From an uncultured Chlorobiaceae bacterium (GTDB taxonomy: Bacteria > Bacteroidota > Chlorobiia > Chlorobiales > Chlorobiaceae): 64,000 bases of DNA. The notes under the pieces were generated by a model. It had not been told where the DNA came from and searched no databases. It saw only the letters and a program-made list of their open reading frames with translations. A program made the position numbers and the translations under genes. Shown here in pieces: positions 12,779 through 21,383 of this stretch. The DNA lies in NCBI GenBank assembly GCA_903866255.1, contig CAIPMW010000029.1:13689-77688 (forward strand), written 5' to 3'. The stretch's first letter is position 1, and each line of letters begins with the position of its first letter.

Positions 12779-13045
12779 TTCAAACTCTCGTCATTGAACG
12801 AAAATCTCCTTATTTCTGATCCTTTCTGTTTTCTGCGACAGGTTTGCGTCTGTAGTCCCTTACGTCAATCAAATTTTTTTTTTCGGATTGCTTTTTCATT
12901 GCGTGTTTCTGCGCAATAACGAATTGGTTGAGTATTCCGGGGCAATTGTTTGTGTCTGAAGCTGAAATCCGCTCTATTTTTGATGGGGATTCAACGTAAA
13001 ACGTATACTTTATTCCATAGGCGATTATTAAACTAATGCTGACCT

Positions 13046-15442
13046 ATGGAGCTGAAGAAAAGTGGCGAGCATTCCCCCGAGTTGCAACAGTTGCAGGAAG
13101 AAAACGCTCGCCTGAAAGCCCTCCTGACACTCCATAATATCCCTTGGGATGAACCTGTTGCGATCGAAACACCCTTGCTTTCCCCAGAAGTCTCTTTTCC
13201 ATCCCTCTCACCACGCTCTGCATCGGAAAAGGTTGCTCTCTTTCGCAGCTTTTTTCGTGGACGGAGTGACGTTTACCCACTTCGCTGGGAGTCTGCAAAA
13301 GGCAAGTCCGGGTACGCCCCTGCGTGCGGGAACGAATGGCGCACGGGTGTTTGCCAGAAGCCCCGGATCAAATGTGGAGATTGCAGCAACCGCCAGTTGT
13401 TGCCGCTTGACGAGCAGGTGATCTATCGCCATCTTGAGGGTCGGCATACTGTCGGCATTTTCCCGATGCTGGAGGACGATACCTGCTGTTTTCTGGTGGC
13501 GGATTTTGATGATGATGGTTGGCGAGAAGATGCCGTCGCATTCATGCAATCGTGCAGGGAGTTCACTATTCCTGTGGCGCTGGAGATATCCCGATCAGGT
13601 AACGGTGCTCATATCTGGTTCTTTTTTGCCGATCCGGTACCAGCACGTGAGGCGCGGCAACTTGGCGCATCCCTGATCAGCCACACTTGTGAGCGCACCC
13701 GTCAGCTTGCCATGGGAAGTTATGATCGCTTTATTCCCCTGCAGGATACACTGCCCAAGGGTGGTTTCGGTAACCTGATTGCGCTGCCATTGCAGGGAGA
13801 GCCCCGAAAAAAAGGATTCACTGTTTTTGTTGATGAGAACCTTCTCCCTTACCCGGATCAATGGGAATATCTTGCATCAATTCAGAAAATCTCCCGCTTT
13901 GAACTGGACACAACTCTTTTGAGTGTCAGTGGTGGTCGCCATCCGCTTGATATTGCCTTTATTGCTGAAGAGGATGAAAAGGAGCCTTGGAAACGCTCGT
14001 TACAGCATACCAGCGCGATATCAGGCCCCTTGCCGGAATCTCTCACACTCGTGCTTGGCAATCAGATCTTTATCGCCAAGGCTGATCTCCCGCGAGCGCT
14101 GGCCAACAGCTTGATCCGTCTTGCAGCTTTTCAGAACCCCGAATTTTACAAGGCCCAGGCGATGCGTCGCTCGGTCTGGGAGATACCGCGTGTTATTGGT
14201 TGCGCCGAGAATTTTGCATTGCATATAGGTCTGCCGAGGGGATGCCTTGATGCAGTGACAGGACTGCTCAAACAGCACAATATCAGGGTGACTATTCAGG
14301 AAGAGCGCATCACAGGTTCTGAGATAACGGTCAAGTTTGCCGGTGCGTTGAGAAACGATCAACAAACGGCGGTCAATGCGATGTTGAACCATGAGGTTGG
14401 CATTCTCTCCGCCCCAACGGCATTCGGCAAAACAGTCATGGCTGCGGCGATAATTGCCCGACGAAAGGTAAGCACTCTGATTCTTGTTCATCGTACTGAG
14501 CTGCTTCGCCAATGGCAGGAACGGTTAACCAGCTTTCTGGATCTCTCCGGCATTACTCTTGGCTTGATTGGCGGGGGCAAGAAAAAGCCGACCGGCACTA
14601 TTGATATTGCCGTCATGCAGTCGCTTTCACGGCGTGATGATCTTGCAGAACTTCTCGACCGGTATGGCCAGATTATTGTTGATGAGTGCCATCACCTCTC
14701 TGCTGTCTCATTTGAGGCCATTCTGAAACAAGCCAAAGCAAAATATGTCCTTGGATTAACGGCCACGCCGATTCGCCGCGATGGTCATCAGCCGATCATC
14801 TTCATGCAGTGCGGCCCGGTACGCTACCGTGCGCTTCAGGCCGAAAATGCCCCGGTTAGACTGGAGGTGTGGCCGCTCAACATGCTTGCGCCTCCGATTC
14901 CACCAGAATCTGCTATTCAGGAGCTTTTCTGGATTCTTGCTCACGATGCTGCACGAAACCAGCGCATTGCAGAAGATATTTTGGCGGCATATCGTGAAGG
15001 GCGAAAGATACTTGTGTTGACAGAGCGGACCGAGCAACTGCAACTCTTGCGTGACAATCTTGGAGAACATCTCACCAATATCTTTCTGTTGCATGGGCGG
15101 TTAACCAAAAAACAGCGTTCGGCGACACTTTCGGAGCTGAATGAACTGGATGGTTCAGCTCCACGCATTATTCTGGCGACAGGGCGTCTTATTGGGGAGG
15201 GTTTTGATCATCCTCCTCTTGATACCATGGTGCTCGCTATGCCTATCTCCTGGAAAGGGACATTACAGCAATATGCGGGGCGCCTGCACAGGGAACATGC
15301 CAGCAAGCAGGATGTACGCATTTACGATTACATCGAGCACGATAATGTGCAGCTTGCGCGAATGTGGCAAAAACGCTATCATGGTTATCAGGCAATGGGG
15401 TATCGTGTCAGGCCCCGTCATTTAGAGCTTCAACCATCATAA
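13046..15442 (+). CDS. Archaeo-eukaryotic primase-like domain + SF2 (ResIII/DEAD-like) helicase fusion (TOTE-AEP type)
   Basis: N-term C..W...C..PRIKC.DC Cys cluster, ADFD and SRSGNGAHIW AEP motifs; C-term APTAFGKT, DECHH, GLTAT, TGRLIGEGFD, QYAGRLHR helicase motifs. Confidence 0.85.
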   Translation: MELKKSGEHSPELQQLQEENARLKALLTLHNIPWDEPVAIETPLLSPEVSFPSLSPRSASEKVALFRSFFRGRSDVYPLRWESAKGKSGYAPACGNEWRTGVCQKPRIKCGDCSNRQLLPLDEQVIYRHLEGRHTVGIFPMLEDDTCCFLVADFDDDGWREDAVAFMQSCREFTIPVALEISRSGNGAHIWFFFADPVPAREARQLGASLISHTCERTRQLAMGSYDRFIPLQDTLPKGGFGNLIALPLQGEPRKKGFTVFVDENLLPYPDQWEYLASIQKISRFELDTTLLSVSGGRHPLDIAFIAEEDEKEPWKRSLQHTSAISGPLPESLTLVLGNQIFIAKADLPRALANSLIRLAAFQNPEFYKAQAMRRSVWEIPRVIGCAENFALHIGLPRGCLDAVTGLLKQHNIRVTIQEERITGSEITVKFAGALRNDQQTAVNAMLNHEVGILSAPTAFGKTVMAAAIIARRKVSTLILVHRTELLRQWQERLTSFLDLSGITLGLIGGGKKKPTGTIDIAVMQSLSRRDDLAELLDRYGQIIVDECHHLSAVSFEAILKQAKAKYVLGLTATPIRRDGHQPIIFMQCGPVRYRALQAENAPVRLEVWPLNMLAPPIPPESAIQELFWILAHDAARNQRIAEDILAAYREGRKILVLTERTEQLQLLRDNLGEHLTNIFLLHGRLTKKQRSATLSELNELDGSAPRIILATGRLIGEGFDHPPLDTMVLAMPISWKGTLQQYAGRLHREHASKQDVRIYDYIEHDNVQLARMWQKRYHGYQAMGYRVRPRHLELQPS

Positions 15443-15445
15443 ACT

Positions 15446-15823
15446 ATTGCAGAATAAGGTGAATGGCATCGTAAGGGCGCAACTCTCAGCGATGTTACGG
15501 CACTGAAGGAGTACGGTGTAGACTATACTTTCATTGTGAATGGTATTTCTGCAGGCAAGCTGGCATACCGGGAGGGGAATATGTAGGGCAATCCCTGGTT
15601 GAGGGTATTGAGAGGGCAGTTGGAACAGTTAATCACCGAAAAGTTTGGCGCTGATTATTTGGTGGAGCAAAACCGCCAGACTGAATTGCGGGTGATCAAA
15701 AAAGAGATGACGGTAATGAAGAAGAGATTGAAAGAACTGGAGGCCAGAAAAGCCGAGCTTGAGGTGGCTTTGATGAAGGCGGACATATTGCCTGATGAAG
15801 GTGAAATGGGTTTATCGGTATAA
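15446..15823 (+). pseudogene. Hypothetical coiled-coil protein pseudogene (two in-frame stops, no ATG)
   Basis: Frame reads IAE*GEWHRKGATLSDVTALKEYGV...REGNM*GNPWLRVLRGQLEQ...; TAA 15455-57 and TAG 15584-86; ORF track caught only 15599-15823. Confidence 0.6.
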
Positions 15824-16012
15824 TTTTATTGTGCCATATTTTTGTCCCCAGAACTTCTGCTGTAATAATCATAAAAAAAATGTAAGTTTGATCCGCTGCG
15901 GTATTGAATGCAGCCCAAGAGCAATGGAGTGACGAACAGAGTCACTGTCATGAAACGCATCAACAGGATAGAATAAGTTGTACCAAATCTTTTAGGCAAA
16001 TGGAGACCGAGT

Positions 16013-17962
16013 ATGGCACTGCATGTGTTTGTCGTCATGCCCTTCGGTGTTAAGGGTGGGATTGATTTCGATAAGGTGTACAGCGATTACATTAAACCCG
16101 CATTGGAAGGAGAAGGCTATGAGGTATTCCGTGCGGACGAAGAGCGCCGCGGAGGAGATATTCTGACAGATATGTTCCAAGAGCTCCTTCTGGCTGATTT
16201 GGTTGTAGCAGACCTTTCCATTGATAACCCGAATGTCTGGTATGAACTGGGTGTGCGGCACGCCCTGAGAGCGCGTGGTATTGTGCTCATTCAGACTCAA
16301 CGGAACTATCAGCCTTTTGATATCTATACCAATCGGAAGCTGCAATACCACATTAAAGATAGTATTCCTGATCCGAAATGTATTGAATCAGACAAAACAG
16401 CTCTTGCCAAAATGGCCAGGGAGACGATGGAATCATGGCGTGGACTCAAGATAAGCCCGGTTTATCAGTTGATTCCGAATCTGCAGGAAAACGAGTGGAA
16501 GTCCTTGCGAATGGGCAACGTACGTGAGTTCTGGGAGAAGCATGATGACTGGGAAGTGCGTGTCAAAACTGCACAGAGAAACAGGTATCCGGGAGATATT
16601 ATTGTGCTGGCTGAAGAAGCGCCTGTTCATGTGCTGCAACTTGAAACATATCGCAAGGCTGGAAAATCACTTGCCTTGCTTGGTCAATTTGCTTTTGCCC
16701 GTGAACAGTACAAAAAAGCATTAGCCATAGATTCCGAAGATCTTGAGAGTCAGCAGCAAACAGGGATAATTCTTGGCCGATTACAAAAGTATGTTGAGGC
16801 ACGGGTATATATGGAAAAATTGGTTAATGATAATCCCGGGGACGCAGAGTCGCTTGCACTTCTTGGGCGGGTCGAAAAAGATGCCTGGACAGGGTCGTGG
16901 AGAAAGGAGGGACGGTCAGTAACTGAGATGCAAAAGGAGCCTGTCCGAGCCAAAGCACTCCTTCGGGAGGCGATCAAAGCGTACGCAAAAGCCTTTATAA
17001 TGAAACCGGATCATTATTATTCAGGCATCAATGCAGTAACCCTTATCAGACTTTTGTATCACTTGACTGGAGATGAAAGTATGCTTGCGGAATGCAAGGA
17101 GATGGAGGGGGGCATTCGCTGGACTCTTAAAAGTGCCCTGTCAAAAGAGACCATGCATAACAAAGATTACTGGGCAAGGGTTACACTTGGTGATCTTGAT
17201 CTGCTTGTTTCTGAGCAGAGTATTGTTGAGCAATCATACTGTGATGCCGTTATTGCGGCTGATAACTGGTTCTCTCTCGACTCATCCCGCCAGCAGCTCC
17301 ATCTCCTGCGTGATTTGGGATTTCGCCCCGAAGTGGTTACTTCCGTACTTGATATTTTTGATCACGCCATTGACAAATTTAAAGCTCCGATCAACCCGCG
17401 CCAGGTGTTCCTCTTCAGTGGTCACATGATTGATGCACCAAATCGGCCGACTCCTCGTTTTCCGGCGGAAAAGGAGCCCGTAGCGGCACAAAAAATTGCT
17501 GATGCACTTGATCAACTTGGAGCAGGACCGGGTGATCTTGCCCTTACCCAGGGCGCCTGTGGTGGTGATCTTCTTTTTACGGAAGCCTGTCTGAAACGCG
17601 GGGTGAAGGTGGACTGGTTGCAACCGTTTCACGAAGCTGAATTCATTCAGAATTCTGTTATCTGTTGTGCGGAAGAGTGGCGCAAACGCTATTTTGATGC
17701 GAAGTCGGGACGTGAGGATTCCATTCGATCTGCTCCAGACGCCCTTGGTGAAATGCCATCGGGAGCCAAGCCGGGTTATCCCTACGAGCGCTGCAACCTC
17801 TGGCTTTTTTATACTGCACTCTCCTACGGAATCGACAAGGTGCGCTTTATCTGTTTATGGAATGGTGGTGGAGGCGATGGCCCTGGCGGGACCGCGCACA
17901 TGTATAACGAAGTAATGCAAAGGACAGGGCAGGTAACATGGATAGACACCCGGAAGATATAG
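16013..17962 (+). CDS. Nucleoside-deoxyribosyltransferase-like + TPR (DUF4071/TPR-S-like) + SLOG-like multidomain protein
   Basis: N-term FVVMPF...RADE...ADLVVADLS..NPNVWYELG; TPR-like helices with YSGINA..L and DYW..VTLG; C-term FSGHMID..RFP, GACGGDLLF, W.G..GDGPGGTAHM. Confidence 0.75.
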   Translation: MALHVFVVMPFGVKGGIDFDKVYSDYIKPALEGEGYEVFRADEERRGGDILTDMFQELLLADLVVADLSIDNPNVWYELGVRHALRARGIVLIQTQRNYQPFDIYTNRKLQYHIKDSIPDPKCIESDKTALAKMARETMESWRGLKISPVYQLIPNLQENEWKSLRMGNVREFWEKHDDWEVRVKTAQRNRYPGDIIVLAEEAPVHVLQLETYRKAGKSLALLGQFAFAREQYKKALAIDSEDLESQQQTGIILGRLQKYVEARVYMEKLVNDNPGDAESLALLGRVEKDAWTGSWRKEGRSVTEMQKEPVRAKALLREAIKAYAKAFIMKPDHYYSGINAVTLIRLLYHLTGDESMLAECKEMEGGIRWTLKSALSKETMHNKDYWARVTLGDLDLLVSEQSIVEQSYCDAVIAADNWFSLDSSRQQLHLLRDLGFRPEVVTSVLDIFDHAIDKFKAPINPRQVFLFSGHMIDAPNRPTPRFPAEKEPVAAQKIADALDQLGAGPGDLALTQGACGGDLLFTEACLKRGVKVDWLQPFHEAEFIQNSVICCAEEWRKRYFDAKSGREDSIRSAPDALGEMPSGAKPGYPYERCNLWLFYTALSYGIDKVRFICLWNGGGGDGPGGTAHMYNEVMQRTGQVTWIDTRKI

Positions 17963-19338
17963 CTGATGCCGACAACGTATCGGCATCAACTGCCAGTGCT
18001 GCTCATGTTCGTGCGCCAAAGCGAAATTTTGCATCTCGTCTCTTTGAATACGACATCTTTCTCTCTTTCGCCCTCGGTCCTCCGCCGCGAGGAACGCGTA
18101 GCTATGCTTCAGATCTTGCCCGTCGCCTGAGCGAGCGTGACTTTACAGTTTTCTTCAGCGAGACGGAAGCTGCGCCTGGCGAGCATCTTGACACTACCCT
18201 GCGCACTGCTTTGCATCGTTCAAAATGTCTGGTCGTGATTGCAAATCGTGGGACTTTGAAGGATCCGCGATGGGTGAGCAAGGAGGTTGAGGAATTTCGA
18301 AAGAAGCATCCAAAACGTCCGGTGATTATCATCAATGTTGGTGGAGCGCTTCAAGATCCATTACTTGCATCCAGTGCGCAGGAGTGGCTTGATCAACAGG
18401 AACGGATATGGCTTGACGAGTCGGAAGAGAGTGTGAAAACGGGGATTGTAAGTGAACAGCTTGTTGAACGTCTTGCTACAGCACCAGAAAAAGCCAGATC
18501 GAACGTAAAGTGGCGGCGGCTTGTGGGGGGGGTTCTTGCTTTTTTTTGTATGATGATCATTTTGTTATGGGTTTTGTACAACAAGGAAACCAAAGCGACT
18601 GCCAGTGCCCGTGCCAGTCGCGACTCTACTCGTGCGGCATTGAGGGTGACCAAGGTCGCACGAGATTCTACAGGCAAGGCATTGACTGTGGTCAAGATAG
18701 CACGGGATTCTACTCAAACAGCACTAAAGGATGCCAAAGAGGCGACGAATCGGGCAAATAGTGAAGCAGAACATGCTATGCAACAGACTGTTAAAGCAAA
18801 AGAGGCTCAGAGACAAGCCGAAGTGCTAAGTGAAATAGTCATCAAAGCAGATTCGCCAGATACGCTTCGAAAAATATTTAACAGAGAGGCGAAGTTCCCA
18901 TTCAATAAAAGCGAGTTTGGCAAGCAATATACCGAAGACCTTTTGAAGGCTGTTCTTGTTAAACTCAAGCTTCTTGGTTTTCATGGCAAAATTATATTTG
19001 AGGGTCATGTAGGTGAATTTTATCAGATTAGCCGTAAGGGTGCCCAGAATGGCGAACTCGAGCTCGCCACAAACGAGAAACTGAAGCACTTAAATCGAGG
19101 AGATACTGCGGGGCCAGGTGTAACTAGTGAATGGGCTTTGATGTTTGGGCATAGCTTGGCGGCCACAGTGAAAGAAATCGCGCGTCCTCTCGGGTTGAAA
19201 AATGTACAGACAGTATCTATGGGAGAGGAAAGGCCAATCGTCGAATATCCAAAGAGCAAAAGAGATGCAGATAAATGGAACCGTATTGCGGCACAAAACA
19301 ATTGTGTCTGGATGGTGTTGGATTCTGATACCAAATAA
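17938..19338 (+). CDS. TIR domain - TM helix - coiled coil - OmpA/Pal-like C-terminal domain protein
   Basis: YDIFLSF...LVVI...WVSKEVEEF TIR; hydrophobic LVGGVLAFFCMMIILLWVLY; Ala/Lys-rich coil; C-term F.F.KS...EGHV...VSMGEERP...AQNN.V. Confidence 0.75.
   Translation: MDRHPEDIADADNVSASTASAAHVRAPKRNFASRLFEYDIFLSFALGPPPRGTRSYASDLARRLSERDFTVFFSETEAAPGEHLDTTLRTALHRSKCLVVIANRGTLKDPRWVSKEVEEFRKKHPKRPVIIINVGGALQDPLLASSAQEWLDQQERIWLDESEESVKTGIVSEQLVERLATAPEKARSNVKWRRLVGGVLAFFCMMIILLWVLYNKETKATASARASRDSTRAALRVTKVARDSTGKALTVVKIARDSTQTALKDAKEATNRANSEAEHAMQQTVKAKEAQRQAEVLSEIVIKADSPDTLRKIFNREAKFPFNKSEFGKQYTEDLLKAVLVKLKLLGFHGKIIFEGHVGEFYQISRKGAQNGELELATNEKLKHLNRGDTAGPGVTSEWALMFGHSLAATVKEIARPLGLKNVQTVSMGEERPIVEYPKSKRDADKWNRIAAQNNCVWMVLDSDTK
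18607..18732 (+). repeat. Three degenerate 42-nt (14-aa) tandem repeats, RDST core
   Basis: R-D-S-T codons at 18619, 18661 and 18703, exactly 42 nt apart. Confidence 0.8.
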
Positions 19339-19433
19339 GCTGTGCAATGGTGTCGAGGGAGATTTAGTTCATCGTGCAGTGCTGCGGTCTGCCAATTCCG
19401 CCAGACAAATAACCGCATAATCGCTGATAAACC

Positions 19434-20601
19434 ATGAACGAAAAGCTTGTTGCTCGTTTGCAATCTCCAGGCCCCAAAAGGTTGCTTGCTCTTGATGGTG
19501 GGGGAATACGCGGGGTATTGACACTTGAATTTCTCGAACGTATCGAGGCAATTCTTGCCGGTCGCAGTGGCAAACCTGAACAATTCCGTCTCAGCGATTA
19601 CTTTGACCTTATCGGCGGAACTTCCACTGGTTCTATTATCGCAGCAATGCTTGCCTGTGGTCGCAGTGTGACTGAAATCAAGAAGCTGTATGAAGAGTTG
19701 GCAGAAAAAGTGTTCAAGCGCCGTCTCTGGAGAAGGAGAGGTGTTTTTGTTGCTAAATTTCCCGCAAAGCCGCTTCGTGATGCATTGGAGCTTTATCTTG
19801 GAGAGAAGACTACTCTGGGAAGTGACAAGATTCTGACAGGTCTCATGGTCATGACCAAACGTCTTGATACCGGAAGCCCTTGGCCTTTGCACAATTGTCC
19901 CAACGGCCCATTCTATGATCCAGATCCATGGAATTCCGAGGCCACAGCCAACAAGGATTATTTGCTTGCTGCGATTGTTCGTGCAAGTACCGCCGCGCCC
20001 AGCTTTTTCAAGCCAGAGCGTATCAGTGTTGCAAACAAGCCGAATGGAGAAAAGGTGGATGGTCTTTTTGTCGATGGTGGTGTCAGTCCGTCGAATAATC
20101 CGGCACTCCAGTTACTCATGCTTGCAGCACTCAAAGGTTATGGATTTCTTTGGCCTCTCGGAGCTGAAAATATGTTGTTCGTCTCTGTTGGCACCGGATC
20201 ATTTCCTTTCAAGCTACAATCCTGCAAAGTGGTTGCACAAACTTCCAGCCAATGTAGCACTCTACTCGTTGAAGGGGCTTATAGACGACTGTGATAATTT
20301 TGCCCAGACCATGCTCCAGTGGATGGCACAAACCACAACCCCATGGATGATCGACAGTGAAATCGGCAATCTGCGTAGTGATCAGCTTGGTCGAGAAGAG
20401 TTGATTACCTACTTGCGCTATAATGTGAAATTTGACGAGCATTGGCTGCAACAGAATTTTAAAAAGGGTTTCAACAAAGCGAAGGTCAAGGAGTTTGAAG
20501 AGATGGATAAGTTTGCAAACATTGCTGAACTCTCAGTTGTGGGTCGAAGGTCCGCACAGGTACAGGTACGTGAAAGCCACTTTCCGAGCTCTTTTGACTA
20601 A
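19434..20601 (+). pseudogene. Patatin-like phospholipase split by a +1 frameshift
   Basis: DGGGIRG, GGTSTG, VDGGV motifs in the 19434 frame; C-terminal third (TTPWMIDSEIG, YLRYN, EMDK) continues in the 19864 frame after about 20200-20230. Confidence 0.85.
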
Positions 20602-20636
20602 TCGTAGACTCTATCCGCTCAAACAAAAAGAAGATT

Positions 20637-21383
20637 ATGACCCCATTTGCTCTGAACGACGTTTCGATTTATGTTGAAGCGAGCATCGGCACCTTGAACC
20701 AGAAAAGAGTAACTGTTCTTAAAACATTGAGCCTTTCCGAACTGCTGAAACAACAAAATCCATATCGCTTGAGTTTAAAACCTGCTCAGACAATCACCGA
20801 TATTGTCAAAGGGCTGGTTGATGCCCATATCTCGTCAAACGAGGAGACTGTTTTTGGTGACTGGCTGGAGGGGCTGGCCATATTTATCAACGGCAAGGTT
20901 TATGGTGGCTGGAAATCCGGTATTCCCGGAGTCGATCTTGAGTTTGACAACGATGGGAAGCGCTTCATCGTCAACATCAAATCAGGCCCGAATTGGGGAA
21001 ACGGCAGTCAGATTGCCAAGATGAAGTCCGACTTCAAAACAGCGGCAAAAACTCTTCGCACCAGTAATTCAGGGATTCAGGTTGTTGCGGTCAATGGATG
21101 CTGTTACGGAAAGAGCAATACTCCCGATCAGGGCGACTATTTCAAATACTGTGGTCAGACCTTTTGGGAGTTTATCTCGTCAGATCCAAATCTTTACACC
21201 GACCTTATCGATCCATTGGGGCACACAGCAAAGGAGAGAAATGATGAATTTTGTCACTCTTATGCGCAGATGATCAACAAGTTTACTCAGCAATTTGGTG
21301 TGGAGTATTGTGAGGCCAACGGAGCAATTAACTGGAAAAAGCTGGTAGAGTTCAACTCGTCCGCAGGAAGGTGGTCTCAATAG
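20637..21383 (+). CDS. Type II restriction endonuclease-like protein (PmeII/EcoO109I-like)
   Basis: SSNEETVFGDWLEGLAIF, GVDLEF, IKSGPNWGN.SQI, NGCCYG, KYCGQ.FWEFIS motifs recalled for this family. Confidence 0.75.
   Translation: MTPFALNDVSIYVEASIGTLNQKRVTVLKTLSLSELLKQQNPYRLSLKPAQTITDIVKGLVDAHISSNEETVFGDWLEGLAIFINGKVYGGWKSGIPGVDLEFDNDGKRFIVNIKSGPNWGNGSQIAKMKSDFKTAAKTLRTSNSGIQVVAVNGCCYGKSNTPDQGDYFKYCGQTFWEFISSDPNLYTDLIDPLGHTAKERNDEFCHSYAQMINKFTQQFGVEYCEANGAINWKKLVEFNSSAGRWSQ

Follow-up and report, generated by a model that had tools for sequence, protein, structure and literature searches.

A TIR protein with a single transmembrane helix and a divergent OmpA-like domain, probably a product of ectodomain exchange, in an uncultured Chlorobiaceae bacterium

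The DNA analysed here, called the window, is a stretch of 64,000 nucleotides (nt) of contig CAIPMW010000029.1 from an uncultured Chlorobiaceae bacterium. On its forward strand, an intact gene at positions 17938 to 19338 encodes a TIR domain, one transmembrane (TM) helix, a helical stalk and an OmpA-like domain in a single chain. The C-terminal domain is OmpA-like in fold and by profile-level homology, and the residues with which such domains bind peptidoglycan are missing. Comparison with relatives indicates that the gene is a chimera, in which the stalk and the OmpA-like cassette replaced the WD40 part of a TIR-TM-WD40 protein after about residue 240-300. We propose, giving the idea roughly an even chance, that the product is an envelope-facing, receptor-like type-II protein whose OmpA-like domain drives clustered TIR domains to cleave NAD+.

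A TIR domain, a membrane helix and an OmpA-like domain in one chain

The features of the gene are as follows (positions in the window; aa, amino acids; AF2, AlphaFold2 model).

17938..19338, forward strand: whole gene, an intact open reading frame (ORF) of 466 aa with TIR domain, TM helix, helical stalk and OmpA-like domain
18049..18477, forward strand: TIR domain, predicted cytoplasmic, aa 38-180 (Pfam TIR_2; alpha/beta fold in AF2; Foldseek)
18283..18285, forward strand: codon of E116, the putative catalytic glutamate within RWVSKEVEEF (aligned to the flax L6 TIR)
18520..18576, forward strand: single TM helix, aa 195-213, LVGGVLAFFCMMIILLWVL (Kyte-Doolittle; within AF2 helix 188-243)
18577..18846, forward strand: helical stalk, predicted periplasmic, aa 214-303 (AF2 helices 188-243 and 259-303)
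18616..18741, forward strand: three tandem 14-residue units, (S/A)RDSTxxALxxxKx, aa 227-268, in the stalk (24-26 of 42 nt identical between units)
18856..19323, forward strand: divergent OmpA-like domain, predicted periplasmic, aa 307-462 (family profile, AF2, Foldseek)
19015..19122, forward strand: family-specific insert, about aa 360-395, after GHVG (profile positions 54-82, without Pal counterpart; AF2)

The TIR domain was recognised by Pfam TIR_2 at aa 41-156 (41.2 bits, cut-off 28) and by Pfam TIR (23.1 bits, cut-off 21.3). The full-length AF2 model was computed from an alignment of collinear full-length relatives that was checked before modelling (A5); it had a pLDDT of 85.2 and was laid out as TIR domain (38-180), a helix containing the TM segment (188-243), a second helix (259-303) and the OmpA-like domain (307-462). 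When this model was compared using Foldseek, its TIR fold matched the TIR domains of L7, RUN1, RPS4, RPP1, AbTir-3AD, BtTir and SARM1 (E values of 1e-5 to 8e-4), AbTir-3AD giving the highest TMt among them (0.75). Residue E116 lies opposite the glutamate of KWCLME in the flax L6 TIR (3ozi) and is invariant (114 of 114 relatives). We take the glutamate at this position to be catalytic in plant, SARM1 and bacterial TIRs, and this WxxxE-motif residue predicts a TIR of the enzymatic, NADase type. The ThsB_TIR model scored 19.5 bits, under its cut-off of 21.2, and Thoeris_type3_ThcB4 21.6 against a cut-off of 220.

The segment LVGGVLAFFCMMIILLWVL has a mean Kyte-Doolittle value of 2.77, and a TM segment occurs at the same position in 105 of the 114 relatives of the TIR half. 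Its N-terminal flank, KARSNVKWRR, is more positive than the C-terminal one, which by the positive-inside rule places the N-terminus in the cytoplasm. The predicted product is thus a type-II bitopic inner-membrane protein, with the TIR inside and the OmpA-like domain outside. Periplasmic placement of the latter is supported by three relatives of the domain (P0139, P0151 and P0126), whose sole N-terminal element is a Sec signal peptide or a lipobox, by a conserved Cys pair in the insert of one sub-branch, and by the fact that the N-terminal partners of the domain (receiver, kinase, STAND, hydrolase, TIR) are all of cytoplasmic types. The initial annotation had proposed a cytoplasmic TIR, one TM helix and a stalk, and Pfam, the hydropathy and charge analysis and AF2 bear this out; an arrangement with both domains in the cytoplasm, which it had kept in mind, does not fit the hydrophobicity and the positive N-flank of the segment.

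The stalk (aa 214-303) is rich in Ala, Lys and Thr and would span about 13 nm if fully helical (an estimate at 1.5 Å per residue). Its three 14-residue units are 57-62% identical at the DNA level, and TRF detected no DNA tandem repeat in the stalk.

The C-terminal domain escaped searches with the single sequence: Pfam OmpA gave no match at E≤0.1 for the protein, Pal_lipo gave 17.7 bits against a cut-off of 125, the best phmmer match of the lone domain in the PDB was 4b5c (E=0.91), and a word-index search recovered the protein itself and nothing else. Exhaustive phmmer over 1.84 billion representatives found 37 relatives of the domain (E values of 7e-23 to 1e-3), the closest being 47% identical. 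The profile of a 36-sequence family alignment (A1) matched structures of Pal, OmpA, YfiB, OprF and MotY, the best being Pal 4g4v (E=2.5e-9), in two blocks: beta1-alpha1-beta2 up to 'eGH', then 'sEYxlaLGeRxA...vSyGxexP'. Between them lie about 29 profile positions without Pal equivalent, modelled by AF2 as a beta-hairpin, a short helix and a strand. The AF2 model of the domain, built on A1, had a pLDDT of 93.4 and a pTM of 0.85, and its best 50 Foldseek matches in the PDB were all OmpA-like (Pal, OmpA, YfiB, TagL, MotB, PorE), with TMt up to 0.82 and E=7e-7 for Pal 5n2c. In the full-length model, the best structural match of the domain was YfiB 4zhy_B (TMt 0.84, rmsd 1.7 Å). The initial annotation had read an OmpA/Pal-like domain from the spacing of four motifs, all of which are present (FPFNKS at aa 320-325, EGHV at 355-358, VSMGEERP at 426-433 and AQNNCV at 452-457), and both the structural comparison and the profile match to Pal agree with it.

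The binding residues and the wider OmpA-like subfamily

Profile alignment sets GHVG opposite GHTD, with G359 at the Asp position, and FGHSLA opposite Pal LGERRA. A phmmer placement of 'RGDTAGPG' opposite 'GNTDERG' was dropped because of this family-wide register. The second Arg of LGERRA, which we take from the D271/R286 pair of A. baumannii OmpA to be the diaminopimelate-binding residue, corresponds to a position at which the family varies, occupied by Leu407 in the window protein; the Arg that the family conserves ('lgeRxa') is the first one. 'KRA' is kept by P0142 alone, which also passes the Pfam OmpA threshold, and the host's own Pal-like protein (contig C46) retains GHCD...LGERRS. The initial annotation was therefore right that the canonical Asp and Arg are lost. 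The loss is not peculiar to this gene, however: the Gly of GHxG is nearly invariant in the subfamily, and the loss of the Asp, together with an insert of about 30 residues, is family-wide. The nearly invariant positions of the domain are retained in the window protein (H357, G359, G429, Y437, P438, W447, N448, A451 and N454).

These alignments place the domain in an undescribed OmpA-like subfamily, characterised by GHxG, the insert of about 30 residues and YP...WN..A..NNRV. The window protein matches the subfamily profile with E=3.4e-46 over positions 3-153. Among 139 genomes of the order, the window gene alone matches the whole profile, and the canonical Pal/OmpA genes of 122 related genomes match positions ~77-126 only. 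Pfam OmpA reaches E<1e-3 in just 4 of the 37 members. The domain lies at the extreme C-terminus in all 37 relatives, and a TM or signal segment precedes it by 10-60 residues in the complete ones; the spacer here is 95 residues long.

At least six different N-terminal partners occur among 36 representatives. A response-regulator receiver (REC) is found in 5 of 37 representatives and in 40 chromosomal loci (Woeseiaceae, Steroidobacteraceae and allies), these having been collected with a 7-sequence sub-alignment that recovers mainly the REC-linked branch. Other partners are a Ser/Thr kinase near the PD-T4-6 models, DUF4062 with nSTAND1 (a STAND NTPase) and, in the closest relatives of the domain, a GHSFG-type alpha/beta-hydrolase-like (lipase-like) domain. 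The TIR partners in P0127 and P0131 have no detectable similarity to the window TIR, so that fusion of a cytoplasmic TIR with this ectodomain must have happened independently on two or more occasions. Being coupled through a TM helix to so many cytoplasmic types, the domain behaves as a periplasmic sensor module, and the subfamily has been recruited again and again to form the external part of signalling or effector proteins with one TM helix. The suggestion of the initial annotation that the domain had been repurposed as a sensor gains comparative support in this way, since a TM helix couples it to receiver, kinase, STAND and lipase-like domains and to two TIR families that are unrelated to each other.

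Two branches deserve separate mention. The 40 loci (L005-L044, from Woeseiaceae, Steroidobacteraceae and other Gammaproteobacteria) carry a conserved chromosomal gene of about 450 aa, in which a receiver is followed by one TM helix and a coiled stalk and then by this divergent OmpA-like domain, with the conserved Cys pair; a receiver wired to a periplasmic domain without DNA-binding output is unusual. In P0117, P0123-P0125, P0128 and P0152 (L046, L047), the GHSFG-type hydrolase-like N-domain has no Pfam or PADLOC match; these look like solo genes and are possibly a lipase-type counterpart of the TIR version.

These comparisons also bear on the simpler idea that the OmpA-like domain merely tethers or positions the protein at the wall, while some cue inside the cell, perhaps relayed by the TPR-S protein encoded immediately upstream, activates the TIR. 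Many OmpA-like domains are indeed pure anchors (Pal, MotB, TagL), and that upstream gene would provide a cytoplasmic 'sensor'. The canonical peptidoglycan-binding dyad is nevertheless missing across the subfamily, the single-TM pairing with receiver, kinase and STAND domains is a signal-input pattern, and the ectodomains of the parent TIR-TM family described below, WD40 or TPR, are binders and not wall anchors. We regard a mere anchor as very improbable.

Origin of the gene and state of its island

A word-index search with the full protein retrieved 113 relatives that align over its first 35-60% only, with 45-73% identity. Beyond the TIR-TM half, these run into WD40 propellers, TPR arrays or nothing; an example is the 'WD-40 repeat protein' of Chloroherpeton thalassium (P0023). 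What the window protein shares with this TIR-TM-WD40/TPR family is the N-terminal ~230 residues, including the MDRHP start, E116 and the position of the TM segment, and similarity to the WD40 relatives stops at aa 226-271. A trace of the replaced part lies just past the gene.

19346..19412, forward strand: non-coding fossil of a TIR-TM-WD40 C-terminal tail, matching the tails of L048 and of P0005/P0008

The fossil peptide FIVQCCGLPIPPDK, which ends in a stop codon, is read at 19368-19412, out of frame and 3' of the present stop. Two sister islands, L048 (a metagenome contig) and L049, hold remnants of the same gene. Homology with L048 enters the TIR ORF by 108 nt and resumes 32 nt past its stop; between these points, L048 reads MDRHP...LWPAPKAWSEELRKKLTRNMTRKEWCEWVSPEIPYIVQCSGLPIPPDK up to a stop codon, in which the start of the TIR protein runs directly into the characteristic tail of the TIR-TM-WD40 relatives (compare P0005 and P0008). 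The remnants starting with MDRHP span 7926-8195 in L048 (an 82-codon ORF) and 2750-2830 in L049 (a shorter one of 18 codons). The fossil tail and these remnants imply that the ancestral island had a TIR-TM-WD40 gene between the TPR-S and patatin genes, and the collapsed copies that the TIR gene was deleted at least once while its two neighbours were kept. An insertion of the gene between TPR-S and patatin is ruled out by the same remnants and fossil.

The probable junction coincides with a break in the stalk model (aa 244-258) and with the three diverged 14-residue repeats; a junction at these repeats may account for the unusually long stalk. No donor of the C-terminal domain was found in the 139 genomes of the order, which points to a cassette from outside it. 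The TIR gene was not found in 24 genomes of the same genus, a second copy of the exact architecture was not found among 5.8 billion clusters, and we found no published description of this architecture or of the parent TIR-TM-WD40/TPR family.

In-frame recombination of this kind could also have left an inert or impaired chimera in an island that is being lost. The fossil WD40 tail past the stop, the deletion remnants in L048 and L049, the patatin frameshift described below, the loss of subfamily Arg residues at S406 and C456 and the lack of a second copy among the clusters would all be expected of such a relic. The 466-codon ORF is nonetheless intact, all TIR family invariants and all nearly invariant positions of the C-terminal domain are retained, and the model of that domain is very confident. 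The closest relative of the domain is moreover only 47% identical, so that the swap is not very recent, yet the frame is still open. An inert product seems unlikely to us.

The other genes of the island, which starts with a primase-helicase and ends with a restriction endonuclease, are the following.

13046..15442, forward strand: AEP-TOTE primase-polymerase fused to an SF2 helicase, at the head of the island (AEP-TOTE E=1.5e-100)
15599-15823: small ORF of 74 aa between helicase and TPR-S
16013..17962, forward strand: TPR-S gene, 649 aa, with TIR/NDT-like N-domain, TPR-S and C-domain
19434..20601, forward strand: patatin phospholipase gene, broken
20637..21383, forward strand: EcoO109I-like restriction endonuclease, end of the island (E=2.9e-80)

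The island (13033-20680) is 87-91% identical in nucleotides to L048 3015-9442, with helicase, small ORF, TPR-S and patatin shared. It lies between typA and phoR in the window and between arginine-biosynthesis genes in L048, and this presence at different chromosomal sites indicates that it is mobile; no integrase, transposase, mobility gene or tRNA was seen flanking it. Of the restriction endonuclease gene, L048 has the first ~44 nt only, and no methyltransferase was found among the scanned ORFs adjoining the window copy. The small ORF encodes 74 aa against 126 aa in L048 and 115 aa in L049 and may be truncated in the window. Scans of the locus for promoters and terminators gave background level only. 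The AEP-TOTE helicase, TPR-S, patatin (CBASS-lipase-like) and restriction endonuclease genes are neighbours of defence type. The TOTE conflict system is named after TPR, OB, TBP and Effector (PMC12458937); of its components we saw AEP-TOTE and TPR-S, and the neighbours that were scanned yielded neither an OB nor a TBP domain.

The TPR-S protein belongs to a family of more than 2,700 relatives (55-86% identity), and in the four relatives examined the patatin gene lies directly 3' of the TPR-S gene (4/4). The pair looks like a widespread, conserved two-gene module, and we found no literature on its function. The TIR gene could be a third member of a Thoeris-like system, in which an NAD-derived product of the membrane TIR would be read by the TPR-S protein, whose C-domain would be SLOG-like, and would switch on the patatin. 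Several arrangements are consistent with this. The start codon of the TIR gene lies 25 nt inside the end of the TPR-S gene, TPR-S and patatin are adjacent in all four relatives, and TIR genes recur near the pair (two in L052, one of them TIR-TM-WD40; a ThsB_TIR gene in L050; one in the lineage of the window, L048 and L049). Against it, the L051 pair has no TIR gene at all and the two genes overlap directly in L050, TIR-TM-WD40 genes occur by themselves in L045 (within a cobalamin cluster) and L054, and the window patatin is frameshifted. In addition, sequence searches with the last 213 aa of the TPR-S protein gave no match in Pfam even at E≤10 and none in the PDB, so that a SLOG domain there could not be confirmed. 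ThsA (SIR2 or Macro/TM with SLOG) was not found beside the gene among the scanned neighbours. A three-gene system of this type is, in our estimation, improbable.

Proposed function and comparison with known systems

We return to the proposal of an envelope-facing receptor. The architecture, the fold, the topology logic, the lack of the binding residues, the chimeric origin and the island context come from computed results, and to these we add by inference a ligand, oligomerisation, NADase activity and a role in defence. It is plausible that envelope sensing would drive TIR activation; the initial annotation had likewise supposed a sensor of phage injection or wall damage, with the TIR activated by oligomerisation. 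The TIR would face the cytoplasm, where NAD+ is available, and the stalk would carry the OmpA-like domain into the periplasm, close to the peptidoglycan layer. There the ectodomain could respond to a cue associated with the wall. Such a cue might be a feature of peptidoglycan that is not the canonical one, or else a ligand in the periplasm that is altered by phage attack. The cue would alter the packing of the stalk and TM helix and bring TIR domains together, and the clustered TIRs would then cleave NAD+, leading to its depletion (abortive infection) or to production of a signal.

Several observations weigh against this proposal. In this copy, the family Arg is replaced by S406 and the Arg of NNRV by C456, both being kept by most of the subfamily, and these changes may impair it; in ZorB, the Arg residues equivalent to the lost ones are required for peptidoglycan binding and defence (PMC11890865). 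The REC-TM-domain branch, the largest of the C-domain family, looks like housekeeping signalling, and the domain is accordingly not specific to defence. AF2 has low confidence at the stalk break at aa 244-258, and PADLOC gave a weak match only (PDC-S66, E=4.5e-7). The TIR gene is deleted in two sister islands, and the island in the window appears to be decaying: an extra base at ~20205, within a short run of C, breaks the patatin ORF into two parts, 19434-20294 and 19864-20601. This frameshift could reflect a real pseudogene or a homopolymer sequencing error; the L048 patatin is intact, with 388 aa.

Among known proteins, Pal and OmpA (PF00691) share the fold, the beta1-alpha1-beta2 part up to GH, the 'sEYxLxLGxR.A...vSyGxexP' block and the C-terminal NNRV-type strand. 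In contrast to them, the window domain has Gly for the Asp of GHTD, an insert of about 30 residues in place of the short 'TDxxG' loop, a binding Arg position that is not conserved (Leu) and the YP...WN..A..NN signature; it is also linked to an inner-membrane TM helix and a cytoplasmic effector, whereas Pal and OmpA have a lipid anchor or an outer-membrane barrel. The TIR-TM-WD40/TPR proteins share the TIR-TM half and differ in the ectodomain, a WD40 propeller or TPR array instead of an OmpA-like domain. YfiB, the best structural match, is only 12% identical to the C-terminal domain. It illustrates the use of an OmpA-like domain in envelope-stress signalling rather than pure anchoring, but is an outer-membrane lipoprotein that sequesters YfiR, without TM-linked cytoplasmic effector.

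A parallel among defence proteins is ZorB, which has one TM helix and a periplasmic OmpA-like domain. Contact of this domain with peptidoglycan has been proposed to signal phage attack, and Zorya does not protect without it (PMC11890865). ZorB depends on ZorA as its partner, on an ion-conducting Asp within its TM helix and on His/Arg residues that bind peptidoglycan in the canonical way. The TM helix of the window protein contains no Asp, the Arg residues are gone, and its output is a fused TIR, not a motor. No MotA/ZorA/ExbB-like partner was found among the neighbours in the window. A class of receptor-like immune proteins of type II, with one TM helix and with peptidoglycan-binding domains among their periplasmic parts, has also been proposed, namely ParA-TM-SPOR/TPR/pentapeptide proteins and the PCTM and TIR-ParA systems. 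In the ParA-TM class, the cytoplasmic N-domain is constant and is linked through the TM helix to a periplasmic sensor that varies and is predicted to notice when the wall is breached (bioRxiv 10.64898/2026.10.19.760177, for both). Its cytoplasmic module is ParA, with TIR separate or differently fused, and the GHxG OmpA-like subfamily is not reported there. Toll-like receptors likewise combine a sensor ectodomain, which is exchangeable, with a single TM helix and a cytoplasmic TIR; they have a leucine-rich repeat (LRR) ectodomain, type-I topology and a C-terminal scaffold TIR, whereas the window protein is type II, has an N-terminal TIR of the Glu-bearing enzymatic type and contains no LRR. The 'Toll-receptor-like' label of the initial annotation is therefore an analogy only and does not describe a homology of architecture.

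To our knowledge, the bacterial TIR defences characterised so far nearly all detect infection from within the cytoplasm, and Zorya is the sole well-studied defence precedent with an OmpA-like domain. If our proposal is true, a TIR wired through one TM helix to the periplasm would mean detection of attack at the envelope, before or during DNA entry. Since an OmpA-like subfamily without the canonical binding pair is reused as input for at least six cytoplasmic outputs, its ligand becomes a concrete question. A broader view, on which we would bet against rather than for, is that TIR-TM-ectodomain proteins (WD40, TPR, OmpA-like) are widespread single-chain transmembrane immune receptors of bacteria and archaea, cytoplasmic NADases that read the periplasm through exchangeable ectodomain cassettes. 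The locus would then be a sensor swap caught in the act, and the GHxG/WN..A..NNRV subfamily a general periplasmic input domain for receiver, kinase, STAND, lipase and TIR outputs. At nucleotide resolution, the WD40-tail fossil and the sister-island remnants record both the exchange of a sensor module and its loss in a defence gene, which has the look of a bacterial receptor in the midst of a sensor change.

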